A DNA stretch of 64,000 bases from contig CAZWXO010000001.1 in assembly GCA_964637885.1 (NCBI GenBank), forward strand, positions 111-64,110, written 5' to 3'. A program made the translations under genes and the position numbers. The DNA is from an uncultured bacterium (lineage in GTDB: Bacteria; Bacillota; CAZWXO01). Of this stretch, positions 12,898 to 52,599 are shown piece after piece. Below the pieces are notes generated by a model. It saw nothing but the letters and a program-made list of their open reading frames with translations. It made no database searches and was not told the DNA's origin. The first letter of the stretch is position 1. Every line of letters starts with the position of its first letter.

Positions 12898-13647
12898 ATG
12901 AAAAAGAAAAAAAACAAATATCTTAAAATTCGGTTCAAATTCATATTTTTTCTCTTCATCGCAGTAAGTATAGTTTTTATTGCTTGGTATTTCGTTGTTG
13001 AGCGTGAAGTTTTTAATTTGCGTTCAATTACTGTTGAAGGGCTTCATAGCTATGATGAAGAGTATTTCCTTAAGGAAGTCGAAATTGAATTGGGCATGAA
13101 TATCTTTTTTATCAACGAAAAGCGGATCAATCGGGATGTTGAGGAAATGCTGCGGATTCGCGAGGTTGAAGTGCAGCGAAATTTACCTGATCGCGTCTCA
13201 ATCCGTGTCGAAGAGCGAGCAGGCCAATTTTTGCTAAATTATGGAGGAAATTTTTTTCTTATCGATACAGATGGTATAATATTCGACAAGGCACAGGATG
13301 CAAAAGAATATGATCTGCCATGCCTTGTTGACGAAATGTATGGCGAAGTTGAATTGGGTAAGGGTATCAGTGAGGGGGATGCATTCTTTTTATTTTCTTT
13401 ATTGAAAAAAATGCCAGCTACTACACTGAAAAACATATCAGAAGTCTCATACATAAATGGTGATGTTGTAATGTATACTGTGAATGGAGTAAAAGTACTT
13501 TGGGGTGACGATGCCGAGAATTTTCAGGTTAAACTGAAAGTTTTTGAAAAACTCCCTGCCATTGCCGAGGATTACGGAAATGTCGAGTACATTGATATCA
13601 GATACGGAGATAATCCGATAATTAAAACATTGGAGAGTGGGGATTAA
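12898..13647 (+). CDS. ftsQ: Cell division protein FtsQ/DivIB with a POTRA domain
   Basis: N-terminal basic region, one TM segment, POTRA-like (ITVEGLHSYDEEYFLKE), beta-domain. Confidence 0.85.
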   Translation: MKKKKNKYLKIRFKFIFFLFIAVSIVFIAWYFVVEREVFNLRSITVEGLHSYDEEYFLKEVEIELGMNIFFINEKRINRDVEEMLRIREVEVQRNLPDRVSIRVEERAGQFLLNYGGNFFLIDTDGIIFDKAQDAKEYDLPCLVDEMYGEVELGKGISEGDAFFLFSLLKKMPATTLKNISEVSYINGDVVMYTVNGVKVLWGDDAENFQVKLKVFEKLPAIAEDYGNVEYIDIRYGDNPIIKTLESGD

Positions 13648-13649
13648 GA

Positions 13650-14360
13650 TTGCAGCATAGCCGACGTTGGCAGTTGTCCATTGCATTTGTGTGTATGTTT
13701 TTGGGAGTAGTATTGGCTGTGCAATTTAGAACACAAGTCTTATTTGAGAACCAGGTTGTCAACCAAAGAGAAGAAGATTTAGTAACTTCGCTCAAGCAGT
13801 CGGAGGAATCCCGAAAATCTCTGGAAGACGAGTTAGCAAAGCTTAAAAAACTAGTGGAAGACGAGACGACTGGCGCGGACGTGATTTTGCAAGAGGAGAT
13901 GGTTGTCACAAGGATTGCTGCTGGGATTATACCGGCAGAGGGGGAAGGAATTATTATCACTATGCGTGATAGTAACCGCCCAGTCCAAAGTGGCGATGAC
14001 CCAAACGCATATTTAATTCACGACACGGATCTGCTAAAAGTAGTGAATGAGTTAAAGGCTTCTGGCGCAGAGTGCATTAGCGTGAATGAGCAGCGCATCA
14101 CGGCCATGAGCGAGATAAGATGCGCCGGTCCGACGATTCTTGTAAACCGGGTGCGACTAGCACCTCCCTACATTATTAAAGCAACTGGAGATGGGGAAAC
14201 GTTAACAAACGGATTAAAGATGCCTGGCGGCATTGTTGAAACTTTGCAGTATTGGGGTATAATGGTCGAAATAAAAAAGAGTCAAAAGATTCTTATTCCT
14301 GCCTTTAAGGGTAGCTTTGAGTACAAGCATACTACTGCTCCGAAGGGGGATGTTAATTAA
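13650..14360 (+). CDS. DUF881 (YlxW/YlxX-like) division-associated membrane protein
   Basis: N-terminal TM segment, coiled coil, conserved DUF881 C-terminal region; TTG start; same position as B. subtilis ylxW/ylxX between divIB and sbp. Confidence 0.7.
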   Translation: MQHSRRWQLSIAFVCMFLGVVLAVQFRTQVLFENQVVNQREEDLVTSLKQSEESRKSLEDELAKLKKLVEDETTGADVILQEEMVVTRIAAGIIPAEGEGIIITMRDSNRPVQSGDDPNAYLIHDTDLLKVVNELKASGAECISVNEQRITAMSEIRCAGPTILVNRVRLAPPYIIKATGDGETLTNGLKMPGGIVETLQYWGIMVEIKKSQKILIPAFKGSFEYKHTTAPKGDVN

Positions 14361-14728
14361 TGTGGATTCCTTTAGCAGGACTAGTTCTAGGTGTCGTCAT
14401 CGGCTTGCTTTCCGGGATCACGGTTCCTTTTTTCTACGCTAAGTATCTATCGATAGCGATACTTGCTGCTTTGGATTCTGTCTTTGGTGGATGGCGGTCA
14501 GCGTATGAGAATAATTTTGACACTAAGATTTTTATTTCCGGGTTTTTCGGAAATGCGCTTCTAGCTGCATTGTTGGCATTTATGGGGGATCGGCTCGGGG
14601 TTGATTTGTATTTAGCAGCAGTGGTCGCATTTGGAGTGCGCTTGTTTCAGAATGCAGCAATAATCAGAAGGTATGTGTTGGGCAAGAAAATTAGGGTTTT
14701 TAATTCCGAATCACATAAAAATATATAA
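14360..14728 (+). CDS. sbp: Small basic protein Sbp (DUF1290)
   Basis: 122-aa hydrophobic protein immediately upstream of ftsZ, as in Bacillus. Confidence 0.7.
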
Positions 14729-14739
14729 GGGGGTGCACT

Positions 14740-15807
14740 ATGCCCATAACGTTTGATGAAAATGGGATTGCCCAGCCAGCAATAATAAGAGTAATTGGTG
14801 TTGGCGGTGGTGGAAATAATGCTATTGAGCGGATGATAGGTGCCAATTTAAAGGGAGCGGATTTTATTTCTGTCAACACGGATGCGCAAGTTTTGTCGCG
14901 CTCTTCCGCAGAGCATCGCATCCAAATAGGCGAGAAATTGACTAAGGGGAGAGGAGCCGGTGCAGATCCAGAAATAGGGCGTCGCGCTGCCGACGAGAGC
15001 AAGGACCATATTGAGACGGTGATTAATGGATGCGACATGATTTTTGTGACTGCAGGGATGGGGGGCGGAACGGGAACAGGTGCAGCCCCAGTCATCGCGC
15101 AAATGGCAAAAAATGCAGGTATTTTGACTGTTGGTGTTGTGACAAAACCCTTTTCAGCGCTAGAGGGACCAAAGCGGATGCGGCAAGCTGAAGAGGGGAT
15201 TAAACTGCTTAAAGCTAATGTCGATGCTTTGGTTGTGATCCCTAACGATCGTTTGTTGCAGGTGCTTGAGCGGGGAACAACTCTCTTAGAAGCCTTTCGC
15301 GTGGCTGACGATGTCCTGCGTCAGTGTGTGCAAGGTATTTTGGATACCATTCTGAAGCCAGGATTAATAAACCTGGATTTCGCTGATGTGAAACGAATCA
15401 TGGAAAATTCTGGTTCGGCCTTGATGGGAATTGGCATCGGGCGTGGTGAAAACAGAGTGGTTGATGCTGCCAAAGCTGCCGTTGAAAGTCCCTTATTAGA
15501 AGTCTCCATCGAAGGAGCTAAGGGTGTACTATTCAATGTCACTGGCGGACCGGATTTAGTCTTAGAACAGATAATGGAAGCATCGCGTTATATAACTGAA
15601 GTTGCTTCTGAAGGGGCAGAGATTATTTTTGGTGCGACGATAGAAGACTCCTTGGAAAATGAGACACGAATAACAATCATTGCGACTGGATTTGACCGAC
15701 CTTCGCGCAAAGTAAGAGAAATTGACGAACCTGTGAAACCAGATACACTACCAAATCAAAATACTGGCGAATTTGAGATACCTCCTTGGCTTCGATCCCG
15801 TGGTTGA
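14740..15807 (+). CDS. ftsZ: Tubulin-like GTPase FtsZ
   Basis: GVGGGGNNA and [13 protein letters not shown] signature motifs; RBS AAGGGGGTG. Confidence 0.97.
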
Positions 15808-15824
15808 TAACCGAAAGGGGTAAT

Positions 15825-16556
15825 GTGTTGGGCGATCATAAACGTCTTATTTTAGTGGACGGGAACATTGCTTTTTGCAAGATGTTTCAGGAATACGTGG
15901 CATTTTATTCCGAGTTTAAGCTAGTGGGCGTTTTTCACAACGGGCTCGAGGCTGCACGGGAATGCCCTAACCTTTCTCCGGACATTATTGTGCTGGACAA
16001 TGCTGTGCCTTTCTTGGACGGTTTAAATTTATTGAAAGTGTTCCAAAAAAGTTTGTCATCAAAAAAACCAGTAATTATAATGTTAACCGCTTTTAGTCAG
16101 GAGAATGTCGCTCGACGAGCACTTGAATTGGGAGCGGATTGTTTTATGGCCAAACCTTTGGGTATGAATAATCTTGTCCATCGGATGCAACAACTGATTA
16201 AAGGCGACGTTTTCGTTGCGGACAGGAAAACAGAAACGATTGAAGCATATCTAATTTCTCTCGGATTAGATTCACATTTGCAGGGTTTTCGCTATTGTGT
16301 TGATGGGGTAAAAATATTGCTGGATTTTTCGCCACGATCGGCTAGCGGACTTGGAAAATATATCTATCATGAATTGTCGAGAGCTAACTCAAAATCAGTG
16401 GCGAGTATCGAGCGCTCGATGCGCTATGCAATTACAAACCGAATTGGCAGCACTCCAATTGTGGACAACGGTCAGACTAATGTCGCTTTTATTTATTCTA
16501 TTTATCGTGCGATGTCGGAGAAAGAGGTTTTCTCGGCATTGTACAGTGAAAGGTGA
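15825..16556 (+). CDS. Spo0A-family response regulator: REC domain plus Spo0A_C DNA-binding domain. The acidic pocket reads VDGN where Spo0A has ADDN.
   Basis: Colinear similarity to B. subtilis Spo0A. REC blocks: DIIVLDNAVPFLDGL and VIIMLTAFSQENVARRALELGADCFMAKP. C-terminal recognition helix: VASIERSMRYAITNRIG versus Spo0A ASRVERAIRHAIEVAWSRG. Likely start is GTG 15825, preceded by AAAGGGG; the track ATG 15786 overlaps ftsZ. Confidence 0.8.
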   Translation: MLGDHKRLILVDGNIAFCKMFQEYVAFYSEFKLVGVFHNGLEAARECPNLSPDIIVLDNAVPFLDGLNLLKVFQKSLSSKKPVIIMLTAFSQENVARRALELGADCFMAKPLGMNNLVHRMQQLIKGDVFVADRKTETIEAYLISLGLDSHLQGFRYCVDGVKILLDFSPRSASGLGKYIYHELSRANSKSVASIERSMRYAITNRIGSTPIVDNGQTNVAFIYSIYRAMSEKEVFSALYSER

Positions 16557-17685
16557 TATTTTGATTAACGGGATTGCCCGAATTAACAAGCGTACCAAAG
16601 AGTTAACAAAGATAATCAAGCCATCTGAAATCGCAGTTATCGATCACGATGACATTGATGAGGTATCAGCCAAGGCTTTAGTTTCCTGTCGAATTAAATG
16701 TGTTTTAAACGCAGCGCCATCGATTAGTGGCAAATATCCGAATCATGGCCCTTTGCACATGGTGGAGAATGGCATTTTTTTAATCGATAATTGTGGTGCG
16801 GAGCTTTTTGACAAGCTTGTTGAAGGCGCGGTTATTTCGATCAATGAAACAACTGGGGAAATATTGCAGAACGATAAAGTTTTGGTCAATGGACAACCCC
16901 AAAATGCGGAGTCGTTGAAGCTTCAAATGCTACAAGCAAAAGACAACGTCGCAGAGGAATTGGATCGATTTGTCGTAAATACACTGGAATTTGCGCGAAA
17001 TGAAATCGGTTTAATTACTGATGATTTATTGATGCCGGAGATGGAGACTGTTTTTAATGACAAGCACGCGTTAATTGTTGTTCGAGGGAAGTACTATAAA
17101 GAAGATCTGCAGGCCATCAGTTCCTATATCAAAGAACAACGGCCAGTACTTATCGGTGTCGATGGTGGAGCCGACGCTTTGCTGGAGATGGGTTTTGTTC
17201 CTGATGTTATTATTGGGGATATGGATAGCGTCTCAGATGCCGCATTGTGTTGCGGGGCCGAGCTGGTCGTTCATGCTTACCGCAATGGAATAGCACCTGG
17301 ACTGGAAAGGGTTCAGCAACAGGGGCTAAGTGCAAAAATTTTTGCTTCTGCTGGAACGAGCGAAGATATAGCGATGTTGATGGCATATGAATATCAGGCG
17401 AAATTAATTGTCGCCGTTGGAACACACTCAAACATGATTGATTTTTTGGAGAAGGGCCGGAAAGGGATGGCGAGTACATTTTTAGTTCGCCTTAAAGTCG
17501 GATCTATTCTTGTCGATGCCAGAGGGGTAGCCGAATTACAAAAAATGCGTTTTAAAAAACGTTATTTCGTCGCATTATTTTTTGCCGCTTTTATACCTTT
17601 GGCCTTGGTTATCGCGTTGTCCCCTGTTTTTATGCCAATGCTAAGCTTATTATTGATTAAGATACAGGTTATTTTAGGAATTTAG
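16546..17685 (+). CDS. steA: SteA-like putative cytokinetic-ring protein with a thiamine-pyrophosphokinase-like fold and a C-terminal TM anchor
   Basis: TPK-like motif (VLIGVDGGADALLEMGFVPDVIIGDMDSVSD) and a C-terminal hydrophobic helix; about 380 aa like actinobacterial SteA. Start is GTG 16546 or TTG 16561, overlapping the end of the regulator gene. The track ATG 16351 lies inside the upstream gene. Confidence 0.7.
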   Translation: MKGDILINGIARINKRTKELTKIIKPSEIAVIDHDDIDEVSAKALVSCRIKCVLNAAPSISGKYPNHGPLHMVENGIFLIDNCGAELFDKLVEGAVISINETTGEILQNDKVLVNGQPQNAESLKLQMLQAKDNVAEELDRFVVNTLEFARNEIGLITDDLLMPEMETVFNDKHALIVVRGKYYKEDLQAISSYIKEQRPVLIGVDGGADALLEMGFVPDVIIGDMDSVSDAALCCGAELVVHAYRNGIAPGLERVQQQGLSAKIFASAGTSEDIAMLMAYEYQAKLIVAVGTHSNMIDFLEKGRKGMASTFLVRLKVGSILVDARGVAELQKMRFKKRYFVALFFAAFIPLALVIALSPVFMPMLSLLLIKIQVILGI

Positions 17686-17691
17686 GAGATT

Positions 17692-18597
17692 TTGAGAATG
17701 ATCATCGATGTTAGATATCATGTTGCTTCTTTAGTAGCTGTGTTTTTAGCCCTTGCTTTAGGAATATTGATGGGCATGTCTTTGCTTAACGGGCAGAGCG
17801 TTTTGGAGAAGCAGCAGGAACTAGTAGAAAGCCTCCGCAGCGATTTTGAAAAATTAAAAGATGATAACGACGCCTTGCAGGCACATTTATCCCAGCTTGA
17901 CAGCAAAAATATCTCGGATGAAAAATTTATGCGCACGCTGCTTCCAGGCATTATAAAGGAGAAACTCGTCGACAAGAATTATCTTATAATTCGAACAAAT
18001 ACCGATGTCGATCTCAATGAACTCGCTTCAACGATTGTGTTAGCTGGGGGCAGCTCGGAGATGGTGATAACCTTTAAAGAAAATTTTCTGCAAATCCTAC
18101 AGAATCAATCAGACAAATATATTGATGCGTTTAATATCGACTGGAAAGAGGATCCAGAAGAGGACGCTGCTCAAATTATTGAGATAGTTTTCTCAATGCT
18201 TGGTGAAGCTGAAAACTCACGGGGCCTGGCTTTGTTGGAACAGTTACAAGCTGATGGAGCGGTCTCGTATAGTGGAAGATTGCAGACGCCTCCCAAGGGG
18301 GTTATTTTAGTTGGGGGTGCCAGCGCCGATGTCAATAATCTGGCAGGTGTAGACATACCAATAATTGAAATTTTGCGCTTGCGAGGGATTAGTGTAGTAG
18401 GTGTTGAAGAGTACCTAGTGCCATTGTCATACATCAAAGATTATCGAAAAAAGGGGATTTCGACTGTCGACAACATTGATTCAGTAGTTGGATTAATCTC
18501 GATGGTTGCAATCTTGAGTGGCGAGGAGGGCAACTATGGGCTCAAGGGAGGCTCCTCAGCCTTGATGCCTGTGATGGATAGTTGGATTACTGAATGA
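17692..18597 (+). CDS. steB: SteB/MctB-family ('copper transporter' DUF3186) membrane protein
   Basis: N-terminal TM segment then a long coiled coil; about 300 aa; follows steA by 7 nt, matching the steA-steB pairing described in Corynebacterium/Mycobacterium. Confidence 0.6.
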   Translation: MRMIIDVRYHVASLVAVFLALALGILMGMSLLNGQSVLEKQQELVESLRSDFEKLKDDNDALQAHLSQLDSKNISDEKFMRTLLPGIIKEKLVDKNYLIIRTNTDVDLNELASTIVLAGGSSEMVITFKENFLQILQNQSDKYIDAFNIDWKEDPEEDAAQIIEIVFSMLGEAENSRGLALLEQLQADGAVSYSGRLQTPPKGVILVGGASADVNNLAGVDIPIIEILRLRGISVVGVEEYLVPLSYIKDYRKKGISTVDNIDSVVGLISMVAILSGEEGNYGLKGGSSALMPVMDSWITE

Positions 18598-19259
18598 GTG
18601 AAATAATTGTATTAATGCCGGCTTACAATGAGTCGGATTTAATAGCGTCTACAGTTCAAGCTGTCGTAAAAGCTTGTCCTTTTGTCGATGTTTATGTTAT
18701 CGATGATGGATCGACAGACGATACAGCCCGTTGCGCGCAGGAAGCTGGTGCAAAAGTGATGCAAACACCATCAAATTTAGGAAAAGGTGGAGCACTAAAT
18801 TATGGTCTCGGAAAAATTGATGGTTTCAAGATAGTAGCTTTTCTAGACGCAGATCTGGGGGAATGTGCTGGTCAGGTGGCAGAGCTAATCGACTCTGTTC
18901 GGAGCGGCAATGCTGATATGGCGATTGCGGGCTTTCCCCCTGCCAAAATTAAAGGCGGCTTTGGTTTTGTCAAGCGTTTAGCACGGGACGGAATTTTGGA
19001 TAGGACGGGTGTATCGTTTAACTCTCCAATTTCAGGGCAAAGAGTCTTGCGCCAAGAAGTGATTGAAAAAATTGGTCCCATCGAAGAGGGATACGGAGCT
19101 GAAGTGGCCATGACTATCGATGCTTTGCGGGAAGGATTTAGTGTTGTTGAAATACCTCTGCAAATGAAACATCGGGAGTCGGGTAGGAATTTAAAGGGGT
19201 TTTTGCATCGCTGGCGTCAATACGTTCATATTCGAAGGGCATTGGCCAAAAGGCGGTGA
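18594..19259 (+). CDS. Small family-2 glycosyltransferase (polyprenyl-phosphate sugar synthase-like, DPM1/GtrB-like)
   Basis: MPAYNES ... DDGSTDDT ... DADL (DXD) motifs of GT-A fold GT2 enzymes; start overlaps the steB stop. Confidence 0.75.
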   Translation: MSEIIVLMPAYNESDLIASTVQAVVKACPFVDVYVIDDGSTDDTARCAQEAGAKVMQTPSNLGKGGALNYGLGKIDGFKIVAFLDADLGECAGQVAELIDSVRSGNADMAIAGFPPAKIKGGFGFVKRLARDGILDRTGVSFNSPISGQRVLRQEVIEKIGPIEEGYGAEVAMTIDALREGFSVVEIPLQMKHRESGRNLKGFLHRWRQYVHIRRALAKRR

Positions 19260-19268
19260 GAAGATACG

Positions 19269-20105
19269 ATGGATAGCAATCCTTATTTATTGTTTTTTTT
19301 GGGAAGTGGAGCTGCAATTTTCTGTGCCATTTTGGCCAGATATTTTTTATATCCGATGCTGTCAGCATGCCCTTATTTGCAACGACCCAATTACCGTCAG
19401 GAAATTGTTCCGATATCGGCCGGAATAATTTTTGTTTTTGCTGCGCTGCCGGTTCAAGCAGTTCTCTCAATCTATCAAATGCAAAACCGAACAATGTGGC
19501 TAACGTGGATGGCCTGTGTTTTGCTTTGTACTTTATTAGGTTTATTAGATGATATTGCTGGCAATCGTCATGACTCAGGTTTAAAAGGGCATTTGCGGGC
19601 TTTATTAAAAGAAGGTCGGCTCACGACTGGTGGGCTCAAAGCTGCAGGAGGTTTAATCATTGCTGTCTATGTTGCAGCACTTTTCACCCATAGTATTCTT
19701 GATTTCATGCTAGGTTCAGTTGCCGTTGCTCTATCAATTAATGTTATCAATATTTTTGACTTAAGACCCGGACGCGCTGGCAAGTCCTTTTTCTTTTTTT
19801 TGGCGCTAATTTTTCTTTTAGCGTCCTTCTCATGGGAGGTATTGAGCTATATTTTCCCGATTACAATTGCTCTACTGGTTTATTATCCCCTCGATGTGAA
19901 GGCACGTGCAATGATGGGGGATGCGGGGGCTAATGCCTTAGGGCTGTGCTTAGGTTTGACATCATTATGGTGCCTTTCTACTCTTTCTTTGTCGATTTAT
20001 GTACTTGTTTTATTCGTCATTCACGTAATTGCTGAAAAAAGTTCGATTACGGTAATCATCGAAAAAAATGCTTTGTTAAGAAAAATTGATCAGTTAGGAC
20101 GGTGA
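19269..20105 (+). CDS. Truncated MraY/WecA-family polyprenyl-phosphate sugar-1-phosphate transferase (PNPT, GT4 family), 278 aa
   Basis: Polytopic membrane protein with LLDDIAG (DD motif), NVINIFD and MGDAGANALGL, parallel to the MraY MGDTGSLALG. It is shorter than MraY/WecA and lacks the HHH loop. Confidence 0.65.
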   Translation: MDSNPYLLFFLGSGAAIFCAILARYFLYPMLSACPYLQRPNYRQEIVPISAGIIFVFAALPVQAVLSIYQMQNRTMWLTWMACVLLCTLLGLLDDIAGNRHDSGLKGHLRALLKEGRLTTGGLKAAGGLIIAVYVAALFTHSILDFMLGSVAVALSINVINIFDLRPGRAGKSFFFFLALIFLLASFSWEVLSYIFPITIALLVYYPLDVKARAMMGDAGANALGLCLGLTSLWCLSTLSLSIYVLVLFVIHVIAEKSSITVIIEKNALLRKIDQLGR

Positions 20106-20125
20106 GGAGTTTGGGAGTAAGGACG

Positions 20126-21235
20126 ATGGAAATAGTCGATACTTTTATGGAATTAGTGGCCATTGACTCGGAATCCTTTGCGGAAAGAGCTATGGCGGAT
20201 TATATTATCCAACGTCTGCGCGCTGCAGGTTGGCAGTGTGACGAAGATGACACGGGAAGCAAAATTGGAGGAAATGCAGGAAATATCTACGCTCGTTCAC
20301 CCGGCAATCTGCTGGCTGATAGCATAGTTATGATTGCACACATGGATCGAGTCAAACCTGGCAACAATGTCAAGGCTTGCATTTGCGATGGTCTGATTAG
20401 ATCTGATGGGTCAACGGTCCTCGGGGCGGATGATGCAGTGGGCATTGCTGTAATGTTGGGAATTGCCGATTACATCAGGGAGAATGATATTCAGGTGGCC
20501 CTGGAGTTTGTGTTTACAGTTGCAGAGGAGGTCGGCATTAAAGGCGCCAAATATTTTGATATGAACAAGGTCCAAGCTAGTTATGGATATACCTTTGATG
20601 CTGACGGTCCTGTAGGTACGGCAATTGTCGCTGCCCCGACTCATGTGCAATTTGTTGCCAATGTTGTCGGCAAGGCCGCTCATGCGGGGATTGCTCCGGA
20701 GAAAGGGATTAACGCGATCAAGATTGTCAGTCACGCTATCGCAGATATGAATATTGGAAGAATTTCTGAATATACTACAAGTAACGTAGGCACTGTGGCC
20801 GGTGGAGTCGCTACAAATATTATTCCTGCCGGGGTTGAAATACGAGGAGAGGTTCGGTCGCACCGCAAGCAGGAGCTAGAGGACAATCTAGCACACATCG
20901 AGGAGCAATTAAACAAAGCATGCCAGAAATTTAATGGTAGTTTTTCAATGGATATGGAAACAGCTTATTTTTCATTCAGAATGGATGAAGACTCAGAGGT
21001 TATTAAATTATTCCAGGAAGCTTGCGGCAGGGAAAATATCGAGTTTTGCACTGCTTGGAGTGGCGGAGGTAGTGACGCGAATATTTTTAATGCCAAAGGC
21101 AAAGAAATTCTGAATTTAGGCTCCGCTTTCCAGAAAATTCACAGCGTTGAAGAGTGTATAGCAATTAGCGATCTCGAAAATCTCTATCGCGTTGCGCTGC
21201 GTCTTGTCCTCCTACACATGGTAACGAATAAATGA
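20126..21235 (+). CDS. M20-family metallopeptidase (peptidase T-like)
   Basis: HMDRV, GADDAVG and AEEVG metal-binding motifs typical of M20/PepT; ATG 20126 is preceded by GGGAGTAAGGA. The track GTG 20102 overlaps the upstream stop. Confidence 0.7.
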   Translation: MEIVDTFMELVAIDSESFAERAMADYIIQRLRAAGWQCDEDDTGSKIGGNAGNIYARSPGNLLADSIVMIAHMDRVKPGNNVKACICDGLIRSDGSTVLGADDAVGIAVMLGIADYIRENDIQVALEFVFTVAEEVGIKGAKYFDMNKVQASYGYTFDADGPVGTAIVAAPTHVQFVANVVGKAAHAGIAPEKGINAIKIVSHAIADMNIGRISEYTTSNVGTVAGGVATNIIPAGVEIRGEVRSHRKQELEDNLAHIEEQLNKACQKFNGSFSMDMETAYFSFRMDEDSEVIKLFQEACGRENIEFCTAWSGGGSDANIFNAKGKEILNLGSAFQKIHSVEECIAISDLENLYRVALRLVLLHMVTNK

Positions 21236-22314
21236 ATTTATCATTGCGGGTCGGTGCAGTTTTAAGCATCGTTGAGGAAAGCGCAGACAAAATTGAATGT
21301 ACCGTGGAAATCGATGGTAAATCTTGCAAAGCCATCGCTTACCCTGGCATGGTACAAGAAGTTTCACCTGGTGATCAAGTTTTATTGAATACTACTGCGG
21401 TTGAAATGGGGCTGGGTACCGGGGGATTTCATTATGTTGTTAGCAATCTCGGTGCACCGGAATTAAAGGTTTCTGGACCTGGTCACATCATGAAATTGCG
21501 CTATACTCCAATGCAGATAAAAACATGTTGCGGTGAAGAAATGCTTGAATATCAAGAGCTTTTTAATCAGCAGGAAGGCATTGCCGGGTTACCGGTCGTC
21601 GCCCTAAATTTGCACAGTCAGCTTCCTTATGCTGTAGCTGGAATAAAATCCTTGCGCCCTCAGGCTCGAGTAGTATATATCCAAACGGACGGAGCTGCGC
21701 TACCTGTTGGCTTTAGCAAAATTGTTGCGGCCATGAAGGAAAATAGCATGCTTAACGGTGTTATTTCGTGTGGACATGCCTTTGGAGGCGACGTTGAAGC
21801 TGTCAACGTGTATTCGGCTTTGATTTTAGCTAAGGTTTCTTTGCAGGCAGATGTTGTGGTTGTGGGAATGGGACCGGGCATCGTAGGAACAGGCACATGG
21901 CTAGGTTTTACGGGTGTTGAGCAGGCAGATATTATGCACGCGGTGCAGGCTTTGGAAGGTATTCCGATTGCGGTCTGTCGGATTGGTTTTTCGGATAGTC
22001 GTCCCAGACATAATGGACTTAGTCATCATTCCCAAACTGTTTTAGGCAAACTGTTGCTGTGCGAGGTAAATCTTGTTTTGCCACCGATGGAGAGAGATAA
22101 ATATCAACAGGTTTATGCGGATCTAGAAAAGTGTGGTGCCGTTGCTAAGCATAGATTGCATCTACGGCAGGTGGATTTTGCTTTGGCATTATTAAAGGAT
22201 TTCCCCATAAAGATAACTACAATGGGCAGGGACTACTCTAAAGAGCCCGATTTCTTCAATGCAGCTGTAGCGGCGGGAATTTTTGCCGGAGAGAAGGTAA
22301 ACCCAAATGGATGA
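21232..22314 (+). CDS. Conserved hypothetical protein (possibly DUF3866-like): N-terminal small beta-barrel-like region plus a Gly-rich Rossmann-like region
   Basis: Long ORF translationally coupled to its flanks (ATGA overlaps). I recognised no catalytic motif; the family assignment is from memory only. Confidence 0.4.
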   Translation: MNLSLRVGAVLSIVEESADKIECTVEIDGKSCKAIAYPGMVQEVSPGDQVLLNTTAVEMGLGTGGFHYVVSNLGAPELKVSGPGHIMKLRYTPMQIKTCCGEEMLEYQELFNQQEGIAGLPVVALNLHSQLPYAVAGIKSLRPQARVVYIQTDGAALPVGFSKIVAAMKENSMLNGVISCGHAFGGDVEAVNVYSALILAKVSLQADVVVVGMGPGIVGTGTWLGFTGVEQADIMHAVQALEGIPIAVCRIGFSDSRPRHNGLSHHSQTVLGKLLLCEVNLVLPPMERDKYQQVYADLEKCGAVAKHRLHLRQVDFALALLKDFPIKITTMGRDYSKEPDFFNAAVAAGIFAGEKVNPNG

Positions 22315-22849
22315 GCGCACCATCGAACGTGAAGTGATATATTCAGGGAAAATAATTAGCTTGCATCGGGACAAAGTAATGCTTGATAATGGGCATGTAA
22401 CTTATCGTGAAGTCGTAACTCATCCGGGGGCAACGTGCGTTTTGCCGTGGAGTGCGGGACGGATTACTTTGGTGCAACAATACCGCAAGCCTGTTGAAGA
22501 AAATCTGTGGGAGATTCCAGCCGGCAAGTTAGAGCCAGGCGAGGATCCCCTGGAAAGTGCACAGAGGGAGCTATTGGAGGAAACAGGCCTACAGGCTCTA
22601 CAGATGCGATATTTAGGTAAATTTTATACTTCACCCGGTTTTTCGAGTGAGGTAATGCATGCATATATCGCCACTGATTTAAAACAGGCCTTGTCGAATC
22701 CGGATGATGATGAATTGCTGAGTATTAGATCTTTTTCTGTGGAGGAATTTGAGGAAATGATAAATGGCCAGAAAATATTAGATGGAAAAACTCTTCTGAC
22801 TTATTATCTGGCCAAGGTCGCTTTGGGTGAGGAGTTTGACTGGAAATGA
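22307..22849 (+). CDS. nudF: NUDIX hydrolase (ADP-ribose pyrophosphatase NudF-like)
   Basis: Nudix box GKLEPGEDPLESAQRELLEETG. Confidence 0.85.
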   Translation: MDERTIEREVIYSGKIISLHRDKVMLDNGHVTYREVVTHPGATCVLPWSAGRITLVQQYRKPVEENLWEIPAGKLEPGEDPLESAQRELLEETGLQALQMRYLGKFYTSPGFSSEVMHAYIATDLKQALSNPDDDELLSIRSFSVEEFEEMINGQKILDGKTLLTYYLAKVALGEEFDWK

Positions 22850-23553
22850 AAGCTCACAATATAAAAAACTGTCAACTTCATGAGCCGGCGATAATGATGG
22901 ACATGAATGCTAGCGGTGCGATGCGAGCCGCACTACGCGGTGATGTCGTCCTTATTGTGGATGTTATCGACATGTCGACATCGGCGGAGGCATTGTTGGA
23001 GCAAGGGCCTCTGGCCTTGTTTGGCGCAGCACTGGATTCAAGCTGTCCACCGGTTGCTGTTAACCCTTGGGGCATTGGCAAGTTGGCTAGTGAGCTCGCC
23101 AATGCAAATGGCGTTAACGTAGTTGTTGTTGCTGAGCCCCGTACAGACGAGATCAAAAGAATAGCAAGTATTTCGCAGCTATTGGCGGGTATAAAGTATG
23201 GCGGAGCGAAATACAGTGGGCCTTTCCCGAATATGGGATCTGAATTGGGGCAACTTGTTGATGCAGCAGGGCAAGTTGTCGTCATCGCTTCAGCTACTGG
23301 GGGAGTCGCCTGGGATGCGGCTCATTTGCACGGAGCTGCCTCTGTATTAACGGGGACTATTGCGCGGACAGTTGGCAAAAAAGGAGCGACCCCTGCGGAA
23401 ACCGCAGCTAGGCGTATTCTTGATGCGGCCCTGGCGCATCGCGTTGACATTTCTGTCATCGCTGCCAGTGGTAATTCTCTGGAGGATATTCTTGCATCCC
23501 AATATATTTACACGATTGTCAGGCAAAAATTAGCTGCTATGTCCAATGAATAA
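22846..23553 (+). CDS. Putative 2-phosphosulfolactate phosphatase family protein (ComB/YitC-like)
   Basis: VLIVDVIDMSTSAEALL resembles the ComB-family DVLRA(S/T)T N-terminal motif; length is about 235 aa. The assignment is tentative. Confidence 0.4.
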   Translation: MKAHNIKNCQLHEPAIMMDMNASGAMRAALRGDVVLIVDVIDMSTSAEALLEQGPLALFGAALDSSCPPVAVNPWGIGKLASELANANGVNVVVVAEPRTDEIKRIASISQLLAGIKYGGAKYSGPFPNMGSELGQLVDAAGQVVVIASATGGVAWDAAHLHGAASVLTGTIARTVGKKGATPAETAARRILDAALAHRVDISVIAASGNSLEDILASQYIYTIVRQKLAAMSNE

Positions 23554-24484
23554 AACTGAGGATTACAGTTATATTCAGGAATTTATCGACTACCTCATCG
23601 CCGAGCGAGGATTAAGTCTTAATACGACGGATGCTTATGCCCGAGATTTGCGACGATTAAACAAATATCGCAGCGAGCTTGACCAGAAATCTTTACTGGA
23701 GCTTGAGGGGCGCGATATTAGTCGCTATATTTGGTATTTAAATGCGGCAGGATACTCATCAACTTCGGTAGCGCGGGCATTAGCTGCTATCAAATCTTTT
23801 TATAATTATTTGTATCGCAATCGCGTTATTACCCAGCTGCCGACCTCATCTCTTCAATCTCCGAAGCTACCTCAAAAACTACCATCGGTGCTTTCAGTTG
23901 GGGAAGCTTCGCTTTTGCTCGAAAGCATACACGCCCTAGATGCTGTGACCTGCCGCGATCGTGCCATGCTGGAAGTATTGTACGGCACCGGGTTGCGTGT
24001 CAGTGAATTAGTCGGGCTAAGGGTCGAGGATTTGTGTCTGGAGTTGTCTTACTTACGGTGCCATGGGAAAGGCAACAAGGAAAGAATTGTGCCCTTGGGA
24101 AAACAAGCGGTTGTGTATCTTAAAAAATATCTGGATTATTTCAGACCGATTCTGTTGGAGGGGTTTGATAGCGAAATTTTGTTTGTCGGAGCAAAGGGTA
24201 AAAATATCACTAGGCAATTTTTCTGGCATCAGCTAAAAAAATACGCTGTCGAAGCCGGACTTGAAAAAAATATAAGTCCGCACACATTGCGCCACTCGTT
24301 TGCAACACATTTGGTCGAGGGTGGAGCAGATTTACGCTCAGTCCAAGAGATGTTAGGCCATGCTGATATTTCAACGACGCAAGTGTATACCCATGTTTCC
24401 GGAGCTAGACTAAAAGCGGTCTATAATAATAGTCACCCGAGGGCTAAGTTTAATCATAAGGAGGAGCGGAAAGATGACAATTGA
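23546..24484 (+). CDS. xerD: Tyrosine site-specific recombinase XerD/XerC
   Basis: N-terminal SAM-like domain and the catalytic RHSFATHLVEGGADLRSVQEMLGHADISTTQVYTHV box (R-H-R-Y). Confidence 0.9.
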   Translation: MNKTEDYSYIQEFIDYLIAERGLSLNTTDAYARDLRRLNKYRSELDQKSLLELEGRDISRYIWYLNAAGYSSTSVARALAAIKSFYNYLYRNRVITQLPTSSLQSPKLPQKLPSVLSVGEASLLLESIHALDAVTCRDRAMLEVLYGTGLRVSELVGLRVEDLCLELSYLRCHGKGNKERIVPLGKQAVVYLKKYLDYFRPILLEGFDSEILFVGAKGKNITRQFFWHQLKKYAVEAGLEKNISPHTLRHSFATHLVEGGADLRSVQEMLGHADISTTQVYTHVSGARLKAVYNNSHPRAKFNHKEERKDDN

Positions 24485-25325
24485 GAAATGGGAAGATCAA
24501 AACCGCAAAATTGATCAGGCAGCGAGTTATATCAATGAAGCTACTGGGGGATTGTCGGTAAAAATGGCTTTAGTCGCGGGTTCAGGGCTTGAGGGATTGA
24601 GCGAAGAATTAGAGCTAGTCAGGAATATACCTTTTGCGGAGATACCGCACATGAAAAAATCAGGTGTCCAGGGGCATGCCGGCGAGCTGAAGATAGGTTA
24701 TTTTTCGGGTATTCCAGTCATCATAGCTTCAGGAAGGTTGCACTATTATGAAGGACATTCGATGCAGGAAGTTACATTTTTAACACGGGTCATGGCGCGA
24801 TTAGGAGTAGAGACGTTGGTGCTGACCAATGCTTCGGGAGGCATAAACTCAAAATTTTCGGCTGGAAGTATGATGTTGATCTCAGATCATCTGAATTTGA
24901 TGCATGATAATCCGCTGCGCGGTCCCTTGCAGGAACAAGACGGTCCGAGGTTTCCTGACATGCACAATGCCTACGACAAAGATTTGCGCGAAAAAATGCA
25001 GGCCATTGCTTTACAAAAAGGAATCACCTTGCATGAAGGGGTCTACGTCGCACTCTCAGGCCCAAATTATGAAACGCCGGCGGAAATACGCATGCTAAAA
25101 ACCATGGGGGCAGACGCGGTTGGCATGTCGACAGTTCCTGAAGTCATTGTCGCTCGTCAGTGCGGCATCAGGATTCTGGCTATCTCACACATTGCTAATC
25201 CTGCGGCTGGTATGGGGGAAGGGGTCATTAGTCACGCCGAAGTACTGCAAGCTGGTCGTGCAGCAGCGGCTAAGACGATGATTTTGCTGCGGGAATTAAT
25301 CAAAGATTTAGGTCAGTTAGAGTAA
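24474..25325 (+). CDS. punA: Purine nucleoside phosphorylase I (PunA/PNP, trimeric type)
   Basis: PNP family 2 motifs (GSGLEGL, VGMSTVPE); length 283 aa. Confidence 0.88.
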   Translation: MTIEKWEDQNRKIDQAASYINEATGGLSVKMALVAGSGLEGLSEELELVRNIPFAEIPHMKKSGVQGHAGELKIGYFSGIPVIIASGRLHYYEGHSMQEVTFLTRVMARLGVETLVLTNASGGINSKFSAGSMMLISDHLNLMHDNPLRGPLQEQDGPRFPDMHNAYDKDLREKMQAIALQKGITLHEGVYVALSGPNYETPAEIRMLKTMGADAVGMSTVPEVIVARQCGIRILAISHIANPAAGMGEGVISHAEVLQAGRAAAAKTMILLRELIKDLGQLE

Positions 25326-43386: not shown

Positions 43387-43407
43387 AGTATAAATTAATA
43401 AAGTGTG

Positions 43408-43608
43408 AATTCTTCAGGGCAGGGTGAGGGTCGTAGACCCGATTCCCGACCGGCGGTAGCGCGAAAGCGGAGCCCGCGAGCCGAAAGGCAGATCTGGTGA
43501 CAGTCTTCTAAGCTGAATCCCAGAGCCGACAGTATAGTCTGGATGGAAGAAGAGATTCTGGTGCTGTGTCTATGTGCCCTCTTGAATTCATTTTCGGGAG
43601 GGTTTTTT
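43408..43608 (+). promoter_or_regulatory. FMN riboswitch (RFN element). The aptamer runs about 43408-43553; the expression platform has a CCCTC...GAGGG hairpin followed by a T6 run that sequesters the GGGAGGG Shine-Dalgarno sequence.
   Basis: Matches the conserved RFN core (GGGCAGGGTGA...CCCGACCGGCGGTAG...GAGCCCGCGAGC...CCGACAGTATAGTCTGGATGGAAGAAG) and sits upstream of ribD. Confidence 0.9.
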
Positions 43609-46990: not shown

Positions 46991-47641
46991 TTGATTTTGA
47001 TTGTAGGTGGAGGAGAAGTCAATCTAAAGCGATTGAGAAAGCATTGTCAGCACGCTAACACAATAATCGCAGCAGATAAAGGAGCCGATTATTTGCTGGG
47101 TATAGGGATCTTGCCTGATTATTTAATTGGCGATATGGATTCAGCTTCCGTAGCGACTATAAATAGTTGTTGTGAAGCAGCTAAATGTGAGATAATCAGG
47201 CATCTTCCAGAGAAAGATCAAACCGATGGCGAGCTGGCCATGATGCAGGCTATGACACTAAGTCCAGAAAAGATAGTATTTTGTGGGTCGCTTGGGGATC
47301 GGATAGATCACTCTTTAGCAAATATATTTTGTGCATCTTCTTTCGTTTTGAGTGGGGTTCAGATTTCTCTTGAAAGCAATTCTCAGGAAATGGTTTTACT
47401 TGCTGGTAAAATGCATTGCAGTGATTGGGGTATTGGGGAAACTGTATCCTTGCTTGCGTTAGGATCGAGTTGTTATGTTGAGAAAATAAAGGGTTTCAAA
47501 TATCCTCTGGTTGATAGGGAGTTACAGTCATCATCCTCATTGGGAATTAGCAATGAGATTGTAGATGCGAGCGTTGATGTTAATATTAAGTCGGGGATGG
47601 CGATGGTAATACGAGAGTTTGGTAAAGGAGAGTTTGAATGA
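46991..47641 (+). CDS. thiN: Thiamine pyrophosphokinase ThiN
   Basis: TPK catalytic motif (IGDMDS) and a C-terminal TPK_B1-binding domain; TTG start; matches the rpe-thiN synteny of Bacillus. Confidence 0.8.
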   Translation: MILIVGGGEVNLKRLRKHCQHANTIIAADKGADYLLGIGILPDYLIGDMDSASVATINSCCEAAKCEIIRHLPEKDQTDGELAMMQAMTLSPEKIVFCGSLGDRIDHSLANIFCASSFVLSGVQISLESNSQEMVLLAGKMHCSDWGIGETVSLLALGSSCYVEKIKGFKYPLVDRELQSSSSLGISNEIVDASVDVNIKSGMAMVIREFGKGEFE

Positions 47642-50622: not shown

Positions 50623-50650
50623 TTGCTGGACGAGAGAAAAGGTGGGAATA

Positions 50651-52288
50651 ATGCCGGAAATATCTGACCAATTATTACGCGCGACTATAGCAAAGAATTT
50701 TAGTGAAATAAAGGCGGATTTACCTGCTAATGTTTCGCAAAAGGCTTACGTTGAGGCGGTTGTCGTCGCCTTGCAGCAGGGCCGAATGTCGGTTAAATTC
50801 GGCGATTTGCTGGTAGAGTTGGCGTCACTTGCTGGTGTTCGCCCTGGTGATAGTTTTCCCGCTCTAATGATTGAACAGAATGGTGATTTGTCTCTTATGA
50901 CAAAAACACCTCGTTTTGCAAATATAAATGGCTTACCTCTGGAAGTAACGGGTAAAATCGCAGCGTTTAAAGAAAACGACAATGGGCCGACAATTCTGTT
51001 AAGATGTCCAATTGAAGGGAAGGATATAACTAATGCTTTGCGCGGAGTAAATTGGGGTAATTTTGAAATCCAATCTATCGATGGGCAAGGAAAAATGCAA
51101 CTCGTCTCTGGAGATGCCGTTTTTGAGGGCCATTCAGATGATTACTTACTAGTTCCGGGCACGAAAGGTCGAATTGAGCTCCAAAGCATCGATAAGCAGG
51201 AAGTCATTTTTAAACTTAGTCCTAGGGTAACCGACGACGCAATAGTTAGAGAAATCTCACAAAAAACCGGGCTAAAAGCAGATCTCGTTTTAAAAGAGGT
51301 AGTTAGCGCGTTGATTGCCAAGGGAGTTCCGCTACATTCAGAAACCATAGTAGGAATGGTAGAGAAGCTGAGTCTCTTAATGGAAACCAAGGTGGACATC
51401 GGGAATGCTGCTGAGGTGCGACATTTAGCTGCTGCCATGGCTACAATGCAAAAGGCTAATTTGCCGATAGATGACGCTTTTGTAAGGGATCTAGGTGCGT
51501 TCTTAAAGGATCCGATGCTGTTGGGGCAGAGGTTGTCCGAGCTTGGCATGGAAGTAGCTAAGAATGCGAGTGCTCTTTTTTTTGCTGGCAATGTTGATCA
51601 AAAGCTTGCAAATCTGCAGGAACTTTTTCTACTACATGGCGGTACTATTACGCCAACAGCCAGCAAAGAAGGTGCTCTGGAAATAGAGTCCTTTGTGAAG
51701 GATTTTTTTATGTCCGGGGAAAATAAAAACTCTGCTGATAATGCGGCAATTTTAAAGCAGTTGCTCTTAAAATTACCGCAATCAGACGCTATGAGCTTGC
51801 AAATAATTACGCCTGATGAAGAGAAAATTCGAGAGTTGTTACCTCTAGCCACCTCATTAATCGGAGCGAGTCATGCGCAAATGGCTGGCGTTGATGAGAA
51901 TGGTGTCAATTTCCTTAGTTTCTCTTTGCCGATGGCATCGAGGGAACAAGGATTGCCGAATTCCATCAGAATAGAATATAAAGATGAAAATGGCAAAAAT
52001 AAGATAGATTGGCAAAACTGTAAGATCATATTAAAAATGAAAACACGTAACTTGTCGGAATTGCAAATCGATTTAGAATTCCGCAAAGGTGTGCTTTCCT
52101 GCCAAGTAGCAGCCATTGAAGAATACGGCATGCGTCGGATATCTGCTACTAAAGAGGAGCTTCGGGATAGCCTTGAATCTGCTGGGTTTACAGTTGGTAT
52201 GATTTTAACACGGTTGTTGCGAAAATTGCCGGAGGAGAATGGATCGCAGTTAAATAATCGGTCTTTCGGCTTCGATTTTAAGGTGTAG
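50651..52288 (+). CDS. YlqG-like hypothetical protein with a FliK-like (Flg_hook) C-terminal domain
   Basis: The C-terminal segment (NLSELQIDLEFRKGVLSCQVAAIEEYGMRRISATKEELRDSLESAGFTVG) parallels the FliK C-domain pattern (L.I.L. ... ARF...SH..R..LE..LP.LR..L...GL). ATG 50651 is preceded by AAAGGTGGG. Confidence 0.55.
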   Translation: MPEISDQLLRATIAKNFSEIKADLPANVSQKAYVEAVVVALQQGRMSVKFGDLLVELASLAGVRPGDSFPALMIEQNGDLSLMTKTPRFANINGLPLEVTGKIAAFKENDNGPTILLRCPIEGKDITNALRGVNWGNFEIQSIDGQGKMQLVSGDAVFEGHSDDYLLVPGTKGRIELQSIDKQEVIFKLSPRVTDDAIVREISQKTGLKADLVLKEVVSALIAKGVPLHSETIVGMVEKLSLLMETKVDIGNAAEVRHLAAAMATMQKANLPIDDAFVRDLGAFLKDPMLLGQRLSELGMEVAKNASALFFAGNVDQKLANLQELFLLHGGTITPTASKEGALEIESFVKDFFMSGENKNSADNAAILKQLLLKLPQSDAMSLQIITPDEEKIRELLPLATSLIGASHAQMAGVDENGVNFLSFSLPMASREQGLPNSIRIEYKDENGKNKIDWQNCKIILKMKTRNLSELQIDLEFRKGVLSCQVAAIEEYGMRRISATKEELRDSLESAGFTVGMILTRLLRKLPEENGSQLNNRSFGFDFKV

Positions 52289-52290
52289 GT

Positions 52291-52599
52291 GTGATGACAG
52301 ATAATAAAAGCGGTAGTAAAAAAATGGAAAAAGCTGTTGCTTTAGGCTACATTCCAGGAAAAGACGGGGCGCCGCGGGTGCTTGCTTCAGGAAAAGGGAC
52401 TATCGCTGAAGCAATTGCTGAAATTGCGCGAGAACACGGAGTGCCTTTTTATCAGGATGCGGCGTTAGTGGATTCATTAATTAACTTACAGATAAATGCT
52501 GAGATTCCCATCGAGTTATATGAAGCGATCGCGCACGTGCTCGCTTACGTATATTCTTTGGATATTCGAGAAGAAAAAAACAAGGGGGCATTGAACTAG
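52291..52599 (+). CDS. FlhB C-terminal-domain homologue (YlqH-like; EscU/YscU/FlhB-C family)
   Basis: About 100-aa protein with a conserved AVALGY...APRVLASGKG..AE.I...A.EHGVP core like the FlhB-C autocleavage domain. I do not see the canonical NPTH tetrad. Confidence 0.65.
   Translation: MMTDNKSGSKKMEKAVALGYIPGKDGAPRVLASGKGTIAEAIAEIAREHGVPFYQDAALVDSLINLQINAEIPIELYEAIAHVLAYVYSLDIREEKNKGALN

Follow-up and report, generated by a model that had tools for sequence, protein, structure and literature searches.

Why should a Spo0A-like response regulator, a SteA/SteB pair and two putative glycosyltransferases lie directly behind ftsZ? The question is raised by positions 14740 to 20105 of a 64,000-nucleotide stretch of DNA from an uncultured bacterium (the window), which is part of a 249-kb Joint Genome Institute (JGI) metagenome contig. 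The original prediction had read ftsZ and the five genes behind it as one candidate divisome-associated module in an undescribed combination. Here we have shown that the region is a conserved block of clostridial chromosomes, spo0A-steA-steB-GT2-PNPT-(pepT-like)-DUF3866-NUDIX-X-xerD-pnp, where GT2 denotes a family 2 glycosyltransferase, PNPT a short polyprenyl-phosphate sugar-phosphate transferase and X an unnamed protein, and that one uncultured Bacillota lineage carries this block immediately after ftsZ, where the division and cell wall (dcw) cluster ends. Sequence comparison further indicates that the regulator is the orthologous Spo0A gene, which evolved unusually fast before coming back under purifying selection. 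The observation behind the original prediction was confirmed, and its interpretation was only partly supported.

All genes of the region lie on the + strand. ftsZ (14740..15807; TIGR00065, 414 bits; Tubulin and FtsZ_C domains) is the last dcw gene and the lineage-specific upstream neighbour of the block. It is followed by the regulator (15825..16556), with a receiver domain and a shortened Spo0A_C DNA-binding domain; by steA (16546..17685), encoding a cytoplasmic thiamine pyrophosphokinase (TPK)-like nucleotide-binding protein with a C-terminal membrane anchor; by steB of the MctB family (17692..18597), whose product starts with a transmembrane helix and continues with a coiled coil and an extracytoplasmic domain; by a small, soluble GT2 (18594..19259); and by the short PNPT (19269..20105), a distinct clostridial subfamily of the MraY/WecA superfamily. 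FtsZ and all five assignments were borne out by profile matches, including Response_reg and Spo0A_C for the regulator, though this protein stays below the TIGR02875 cut-off. Gene order and spacings also proved exact for the start codons chosen: the regulator starts with GTG at 15825, 17 nucleotides (nt) behind ftsZ and downstream of the Shine-Dalgarno sequence GAAAGGGG, and overlaps steA by 11 nt; steA and steB are 6 nt apart, steB and GT2 overlap by 4 nt, GT2 and PNPT are separated by 9 nt, and PNPT overlaps the pepT-like gene (start 20102) by 4 nt. The JGI calls on the same contig use other starts (regulator TTG 15804, steA TTG 16561, steB 17698, pepT-like gene 20126), with which the junctions are still tight. 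Ending the module at 20105 was arbitrary, as the block continues through the genes for a PepT-like M20 peptidase (20102..21235; TIGR01883, 330 bits) and a DUF3866 protein (21232..22314; PF12982, 397 bits), which completes the five members of the widespread cluster, and on through NUDIX and the unnamed protein to xerD.

The synteny set was obtained by a SteA scan of species-representative genomes, giving 80 loci that were annotated by tblastn with the window proteins. Bacillota-type loci made up 44 of the 80, mostly from Syntrophomonadaceae and Peptococcaceae-like metagenome-assembled genomes (MAGs), plus S. wolfei, and the counts take in only loci with enough flank. Behind steA we found steB in 41/41 loci, then GT2 in 40/40 and PNPT in 38/38, with the pepT-like gene (26/26) and DUF3866 (22/26) downstream; a Spo0A-type regulator stood upstream in 35/35 loci, while ftsZ was within 10 kb upstream in 0/27. 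Of the gene order whose recurrence was in question, the steA-steB-GT2-PNPT part therefore recurs, including in Desulfotomaculum, Aceticella and an Irregularibacter-like contig, and the tie to ftsZ does not. The usual upstream neighbours are instead recN-spoIVB-spo0A, as in S. wolfei, where the order is dxs-tlyA-nadK-argR-recN-spoIVB-spo0A (Spo0A, 403 bits), in Desulfotomaculum nigrificans (L086), in Aceticella autotrophica (L087) and in two Clostridia MAGs (L089, L090). At the Bacillota loci a true Spo0A occupies the regulator position, with an intergenic gap of ~155-2064 nt to steA. The regulator of the window is no new dedicated partner but the much diverged resident Spo0A gene.

The exceptions to this arrangement are informative about what belongs to the core. 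The Irregularibacter-like contig (L088) reads DUF881-DUF1290-ftsZ-spoIIGA-sigE-sigG-nrdR-steA-steB-GT2-PNPT-DUF3866-NUDIX-spoIIM-ald-xerD-drm-pnp-dacF, indicating that the steA quartet holds together when its upstream neighbour changes; the same contig bears out the expectation of spoIIGA-sigE-sigG behind ftsZ in sporulating Clostridia. From L087 to L090, DUF3866 lies directly 3' of PNPT and the pepT-like gene is not in between; this gene is thus part of the block in Syntrophomonadaceae-type loci and absent at that position in other lineages. At L089 (7342-10001) and L090 (7350-10001), steA is followed directly by GT2-PNPT-DUF3866, steB being missing between them, which ties SteA to the glycosyltransferases. 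The conserved core is steA-(steB)-GT2-PNPT-DUF3866, with ftsZ excluded. Among the individual loci, L087 has a 569-amino-acid (aa) SSO2105_N-domain gene inserted between steA and steB, and a Spo0A-type regulator and steA in Firmicutes-type context were found in three MAGs binned as Solirubrobacterales, Methylocystaceae and Chitinophagales (L004, L011 and L016), with steB-GT2-PNPT additionally in L004 and L011; these three are probably mis-binned.

The ftsZ junction itself is real and stable in a small lineage, yet lineage-specific. One further metagenomic contig, L084, which comes from a different sample, has an identical ftsZ-regulator-steA-steB-GT2-PNPT order at ~71-84% nucleotide identity per gene, with the order kept from murF to pnp, a gap of 15 nt between ftsZ and the regulator, an 11-nt overlap of regulator and steA, and 99% amino-acid identity to the FtsZ of the window. 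An assembly chimera at the ftsZ junction was rejected, since L084 shows the same junction. SteA relatives in the scan reached at most 57% identity, and on sequence grounds the lineage appears to be an uncultured Bacillota near the Syntrophomonadaceae/Peptococcaceae-type MAGs.

How far does gene packing define a unit here? An unbroken run of 25 genes extends over 72-25325 (+), with the dcw genes in the order mraZ, rsmH, PBP, murE, murF, mraY, murD, ftsW, murG, murC, ftsQ, DUF881, DUF1290, ftsZ, followed by the block genes. Across this 25-kb mraZ-to-pnp run 23/24 junctions measure 20 nt or less and 14 overlap, so that tight packing is no mark of the five genes as a unit. A terminator splitting the genes was sought from ftsZ to pnp and none was found, nor is there room for one between the genes; promoter-like sites numbered 39 in the sequence against 37 in shuffles, which is uninformative beyond the lack of an obvious break. 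Probably, the dcw genes of the window lineage share a transcript with the cluster and the rebuilt Spo0A.

The assignments of SteA and SteB, for which profile searches had been proposed as a check, were upheld by both searches. SteA matched the curated equivalog hidden Markov model NF040608 with 467.1 bits (cut-off 150) over positions 1-368 of 369 and the solved SteA structure PDB 9hmy (9hmy_A) with 238 bits; it contains PF04263 (TPK-like core) and PF12555 (anchor), and residues 338-379 form a hydrophobic C-terminal tail. That this protein is the housekeeping thiamine pyrophosphokinase was rejected, as a complete TPK (TPK_catalytic and TPK_B1_binding, 216 aa) is encoded at 46991-47641 (+). SteB matched PF11382 (MctB) with 144.6 bits (gathering 25.6) over positions 1-306 of 306. 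A single-sequence phmmer search of SteB against PDB gave no match, whereas a profile of 20 SteB homologs matched the solved MctB/SteB structures 9m9z (7e-19), 9hle and Cg1604 8au6. Residues 3-35 of SteB form a transmembrane-like segment, followed by a charged heptad-like stretch, and a weak DivIC/HALZ coiled-coil match covers residues 22-72.

In the cell-separation system of Mycobacteriales, SteA and SteB assemble at the septum as a transmembrane heterotetramer; its SteB subunits contact the endopeptidase RipA through the coiled coil of that enzyme, and SteAB activates RipA (PMC12977500). The conserved pocket of SteA resembles the nucleotide site of thiamine pyrophosphokinase and is predicted to bind carbohydrate, and SteA of C. 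glutamicum is stabilised by GDP or UDP and not by ADP or nucleoside triphosphates (PMC12977500). Compared with the actinobacterial proteins (Rv1697/Rv1698-MctB; Cg1603/Cg1604), the SteA of the window is ~50% identical and shares the TPK-like core and C-terminal anchor, its SteB has the same MctB-family architecture, and the two genes are likewise adjacent. In contrast, the window host is a member of the Bacillota without a mycomembrane, its SteB is ~21-24% identical to the two actinobacterial SteB proteins detectable by similarity, and its pair is followed by GT2, short PNPT and DUF3866, genes that were adjacent in 0/25 actinobacterial loci. Those loci have steA, and a steB too diverged for tblastn, but no neighbouring GT2.

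GT2 matched PF00535 with 77.4 bits (cut-off 23.3); its nearest named families are AglJ, GpgS and PpgS, each scoring far under its cut-off, and among PDB entries it comes closest to DPM synthase and GpgS. It carries the motifs DDGS (residue 37) and DAD (residue 85) and has no transmembrane segment. The match of PNPT to PF00953 is marginal (29.3 bits, cut-off 27), and single-sequence phmmer against PDB found nothing for it, but its AlphaFold2 model (pLDDT 92) gave only MraY and DPAGT1 as Foldseek fold matches in PDB (probability 1.0, TM ~0.6). More than 2000 homologs of 245-293 aa share the invariant motifs DD, N..N..DLRPGRAxK, MGDxGxN (here MGDAGAN) and H...E, and this large short family together with its motifs and MraY-like fold indicates a distinct short PNPT subfamily and not a truncated gene, so that the earlier term "truncated" was misleading. 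Catalytic motifs of MraY and WecA are DD, NxxNxxDGxDGL and MGDxGS. With MraY/WecA/DPAGT1 the window PNPT has in common the fold, the DD and MGDxGxN motifs, a His and a Glu, but it has 278 aa compared with 300-384 residues in solved MraY/DPAGT1 chains, to which it is 12-17% identical, and its middle motif reads DLRPGRAGK where the consensus has a DGxDGL-type sequence; a non-canonical PNPT activity is possible. Between the window and L084 the five genes steA, steB, GT2, PNPT and DUF3866 are all under purifying selection, with approximate dN/dS (nonsynonymous over synonymous divergence) values of 0.05-0.10.

What, then, has become of the regulator? It occupies the place before steA that is held by Spo0A in 35/35 loci, with spoIVB absent and ftsZ upstream instead, and TIGR02875 (Spo0A) is by far its best NCBIfam match, yet its score of 132 bits is under the equivalog cut-off of 200, compared with 403 and 417 bits for the true Spo0As of L019 and L007. 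Like Spo0A it combines a receiver domain (PF00072, 61.6 bits) with Spo0A_C (PF08769, 32.3 bits versus 25), the latter covering only profile positions 1-66 of 104. A search of 5.8 billion clustered proteins gave a single close homolog (P0002, on the L084 contig; 81% identity), the other matches being canonical Spo0As at ~31% identity. The regulator is 26-29% identical to true Spo0As, whereas these are 54-77% identical among themselves in four reference lineages, where no gene of the block is better conserved than Spo0A; for SteA, SteB, GT2, PNPT and DUF3866, the similarity between window and references is about the same as that among the references, and these five are not accelerated. Aligned with true Spo0As, the regulator keeps the phospho-acceptor Asp, the Thr, the Lys, the helix-turn-helix and the ERxxRxAI recognition-helix core, but its acidic pocket reads VDGN instead of ADDN (DD to DG, one Asp lost), a stretch of 12 residues (ELAWDRGNxDxI) that follows the recognition helix is missing, and the linker between the domains is shorter. 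In B. subtilis Spo0A, this stretch presumably lies next to the region that activates sigma-A. Between the window and L084 the gene has dN 0.107 and dS ~1.65, giving a rough dN/dS of ~0.065, neighbouring genes ranging from 0.006 to 0.14. Low identity to Spo0As combined with low dN/dS shows that the gene changed in a burst of its own and is maintained today, and that it is not a pseudogene. From these sequence features, Spo0A has probably been repurposed, with phosphorylation control altered or lost and promoter contacts altered. On a separate 7.7-kb metagenomic contig (L085, 6624-7330), the spo0A behind recN-spoIVB is split into receiver (150 aa) and Spo0A_C (68 aa) open reading frames, which reflects either a frameshift or another instance of Spo0A decay.

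The surroundings of the regulator also lack the flanking sporulation genes of canonical spo0A loci. No sporulation-specific family was found in the Pfam gene lists covering the window from ~8,600 to 64,000 and ~10 kb beyond, and the dcw genes checked upstream of ~8.6 kb are not sporulation-specific. At the canonical positions, spoIIGA-sigE-sigG is missing behind ftsZ and spoIVB is missing ahead of the regulator; the genes for the unnamed protein and xerD overlap here, with no spoIIM between them, and pnp is not followed by dacF-spoIIAA-AB-sigF. We infer that the lineage is asporogenous.

The combination is also less novel than first thought. Some Bacillota, mainly Clostridia, have steAB right behind Spo0A, and a possible sporulation role for it was suggested (PMC12977500, mBio 2026); in the literature searched, that mBio paper was the only one combining SteA with Spo0A or MctB, and DUF3866 was discussed no further. 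In C. difficile, CDR20291_1053-1057 were essential in two transposon sequencing studies, with function unknown, and are annotated as pyrophosphokinase (373 aa), exported protein (291 aa), family-2 glycosyltransferase (230 aa), glycosyltransferase family protein (274 aa) and, for CDR20291_1057, a protein named for its DUF3866 domain (355 aa) (PMC12157513). CRISPR interference (CRISPRi) of this cluster gave short, swollen, phase-bright, chaining cells; SteA and SteB are unmentioned in that paper, and spo0A is not among its essential genes (PMC12157513). CDR20291_1052, directly before CDR20291_1053, is spo0A (PMC5311115). By annotation, protein sizes (379/301/221/278/360 aa in the window), the DUF3866 name and the position after spo0A, the C. 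difficile cluster matches that of the window, the order after the regulator being the same (SteA, SteB, GT2, small glycosyltransferase-family membrane protein, DUF3866). Unlike the clostridial spo0A-steAB locus, the window has ftsZ and not recN-spoIVB upstream and a diverged Spo0A that overlaps steA with no intergenic region, and unlike the C. difficile cluster it has the pepT-like gene between PNPT and DUF3866.

We consider it likely that a conserved block was moved behind ftsZ, that its Spo0A was repurposed and is now co-expressed with the division operon, and that the core cluster works as follows, a mechanism modelled on the actinobacterial SteAB work and on operon logic. SteA2-SteB2 would be a transmembrane signalling complex in which SteB, through its extracytoplasmic coiled-coil domain, positions or activates a hydrolase that cuts the cell wall to separate daughter cells, while the cytoplasmic pocket of SteA would read a UDP- or GDP-containing metabolite. 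PNPT and GT2 would build a sugar intermediate linked to polyprenyl-(pyro)phosphate, destined for an envelope glycopolymer, and this pathway may supply or consume the nucleotide-sugar signal sensed by SteA, thereby coupling wall-glycan synthesis to septal hydrolysis in vegetative growth. Such a mechanism would fit the chained and swollen C. difficile cells and the persistence of the cluster in a lineage that seems to have lost sporulation; the chaining on knock-down of the matching C. difficile cluster also lends indirect support to a role of SteA in cell separation. A more far-reaching version, which we put forward only tentatively and would not at present favour, is that steA-steB-GT2-short PNPT-DUF3866 is a single, probably essential clostridial envelope pathway, in which the lipid-linked glycan of PNPT and GT2 is read by the SteA pocket and gates SteB-dependent septal hydrolysis, captured here by the division operon under a Spo0A rebuilt as a vegetative, possibly phosphorylation-independent division regulator.

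Several alternatives draw on the same evidence. A dedicated divisome module of ftsZ, Spo0A-like regulator, SteA, SteB, GT2 and PNPT, wired into the ftsZ transcript and controlled by the regulator, would agree with the tight or overlapping spacing and its lack of room for a terminator, with a junction kept in L084 across saturated synonymous divergence, with the steA block of L088 only four genes past ftsZ, and with the division-associated function of SteAB in Actinobacteria (PMC12977500). As a general module, however, it is largely refuted by the related loci, where ftsZ was within 10 kb in 0/27 and the regulator slot holds a true Spo0A separated from steA by an intergenic gap, and by L088, which has no regulator at all beside steA; moreover, the equally tight junctions of the long run take in the unrelated xerD and pnp, and we regard this explanation as unlikely. 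Rather unlikely, too, is that SteAB and the two glycosyltransferases are neighbours through frozen ancestral synteny only, with GT2 and PNPT serving an unrelated glycoconjugate. The whole tlyA-to-xerD region is an old synteny block, shared, as we presume from the M. tuberculosis map, with Actinobacteria (tlyA-ppnK-recN-steA-steB...NUDIX-xerD); the unrelated NUDIX, xerD and pnp are just as conserved in order, and actinobacterial steAB loci mostly do without glycosyltransferases. Yet the four genes stay contiguous while their flanks vary (spo0A, nrdR or ftsZ upstream; pepT-like, ferredoxin/POR genes or DUF3866 downstream), they are by annotation jointly essential in C. difficile with one phenotype, and the UDP or GDP ligand class of SteA fits glycosyltransferase chemistry.

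The two remaining alternatives concern sporulation. If steA-steB-GT2-PNPT-DUF3866 served a sporulation function, its presence here would be incidental; this would fit its place directly after spo0A and amid spoIVB, spoIIM, dacF and the spoIIA operon in many Clostridia, and the role suggested in PMC12977500. However, C. difficile needs the matching cluster for vegetative growth, whereas spo0A is missing from the essential genes listed there, SteAB works in non-sporulating Actinobacteria, and the window lineage keeps all five genes under purifying selection without the flanking sporulation genes. Two observations, the chained and swollen cells of C. difficile and the survival of the cluster in a seemingly non-sporulating lineage, argue against a sporulation-specific role, which we hold to be very unlikely. 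A regulator that is only a functionless, decaying spo0A remnant after loss of sporulation would account for its low identity, its lost acidic-pocket Asp, the 12 residues missing from its DNA-binding domain and its score under the NCBIfam cut-off, but the frame is intact in two members of the lineage, with 81% amino-acid identity despite a dS of ~1.65, its dN/dS is the same as that of neighbouring housekeeping genes, and the phospho-acceptor Asp, Thr, Lys and ERxxRxAI core are retained. A pseudogene was rejected on the dN/dS, and the remnant explanation is very improbable.

A number of points nevertheless weigh against the relocated block and repurposed Spo0A that we prefer. All evidence on the window lineage is sequence-based, and the ftsZ junction is known from one other contig only, of the same lineage. 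Co-transcription with ftsZ is deduced from spacing alone, and consensus promoter-like sites lie within ftsZ and the regulator gene, e.g., at 15722-15749 and 16053-16081. The asporogenous state is judged from ~65 kb of the 249-kb contig and not from a whole genome, and the dN/dS values are rough because dS is saturated. As to the core cluster, gene clustering may partly be ancient frozen synteny and not a shared pathway, no RipA-like (NlpC/P60) partner hydrolase was identified in the window, and PNPT differs in its second motif from what is usual for MraY and WecA. The equivalence with CDR20291_1053-1057 is drawn from annotation, size, name and position and not from sequence comparison, and CRISPRi is polar, so that the C. 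difficile phenotype is not assignable to single genes.

The remaining genes of the co-directional run follow the same synteny. Behind DUF3866 come a NUDIX hydrolase gene (22307..22849; Pfam NUDIX), a conserved follower of the block, and the unnamed 235-aa conserved protein (22846..23553), which has no Pfam match and is found after NUDIX in ~30 loci; its start and stop overlap both neighbours, and an unannotated gene of 225-228 aa, likened to it by position and size, occupies the same place in L089 and L090. An xerD-type recombinase gene (23546..24484; Phage_integrase and SAM domains) and pnp (24474-25325) close the run, all of these being on the + strand. Upstream, 12898-14728 (+) reads ftsQ-DUF881-DUF1290-ftsZ without an intervening ftsA, the same arrangement as in L088. 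We take ylxW and ylxX, downstream of ftsQ in C. difficile, to represent the same two families as DUF881 and DUF1290. The C. difficile ylxW and ylxX products were reported at midcell (PMC12157513). Further along the window, an FMN riboswitch (RF00050, 89.9 bits) at 43406-43558 (+) precedes a riboflavin operon (ribD, ribE, ribBA, ribH), and 50642-52599 (+) encodes a 548-aa protein with only a sub-threshold FliK-like (Flg_hook) match followed by a small FlhB-like (Bac_export_2) protein, in surroundings of otherwise housekeeping genes.

The SteAB system, its place after spo0A and the essential five-gene cluster of C. difficile were already known. New are the fusion of the block directly to ftsZ, the fast-evolved yet selected Spo0A that overlaps steA without neighbouring sporulation genes, and the explicit link of SteA to the conserved GT2/short-PNPT/DUF3866 set, which points to what SteA could sense. 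The ligand of SteA and the trigger of SteAB are open questions in mycobacterial cell division, and the fact that in Clostridia steA is kept beside two nucleotide-sugar-using enzymes, in some lineages without steB, narrows the candidate ligands to substrates or products of GT2 and PNPT. Our comparison also suggests that four of the fifteen C. difficile genes classed as essential with unknown function are the SteAB system and its glycosyltransferases, which offers a working hypothesis on a potential narrow-spectrum drug target. Finally, the window lineage may be seen as a natural experiment, in which Spo0A outlasts its neighbouring sporulation genes, evolves fast and is then fixed in the dcw operon.

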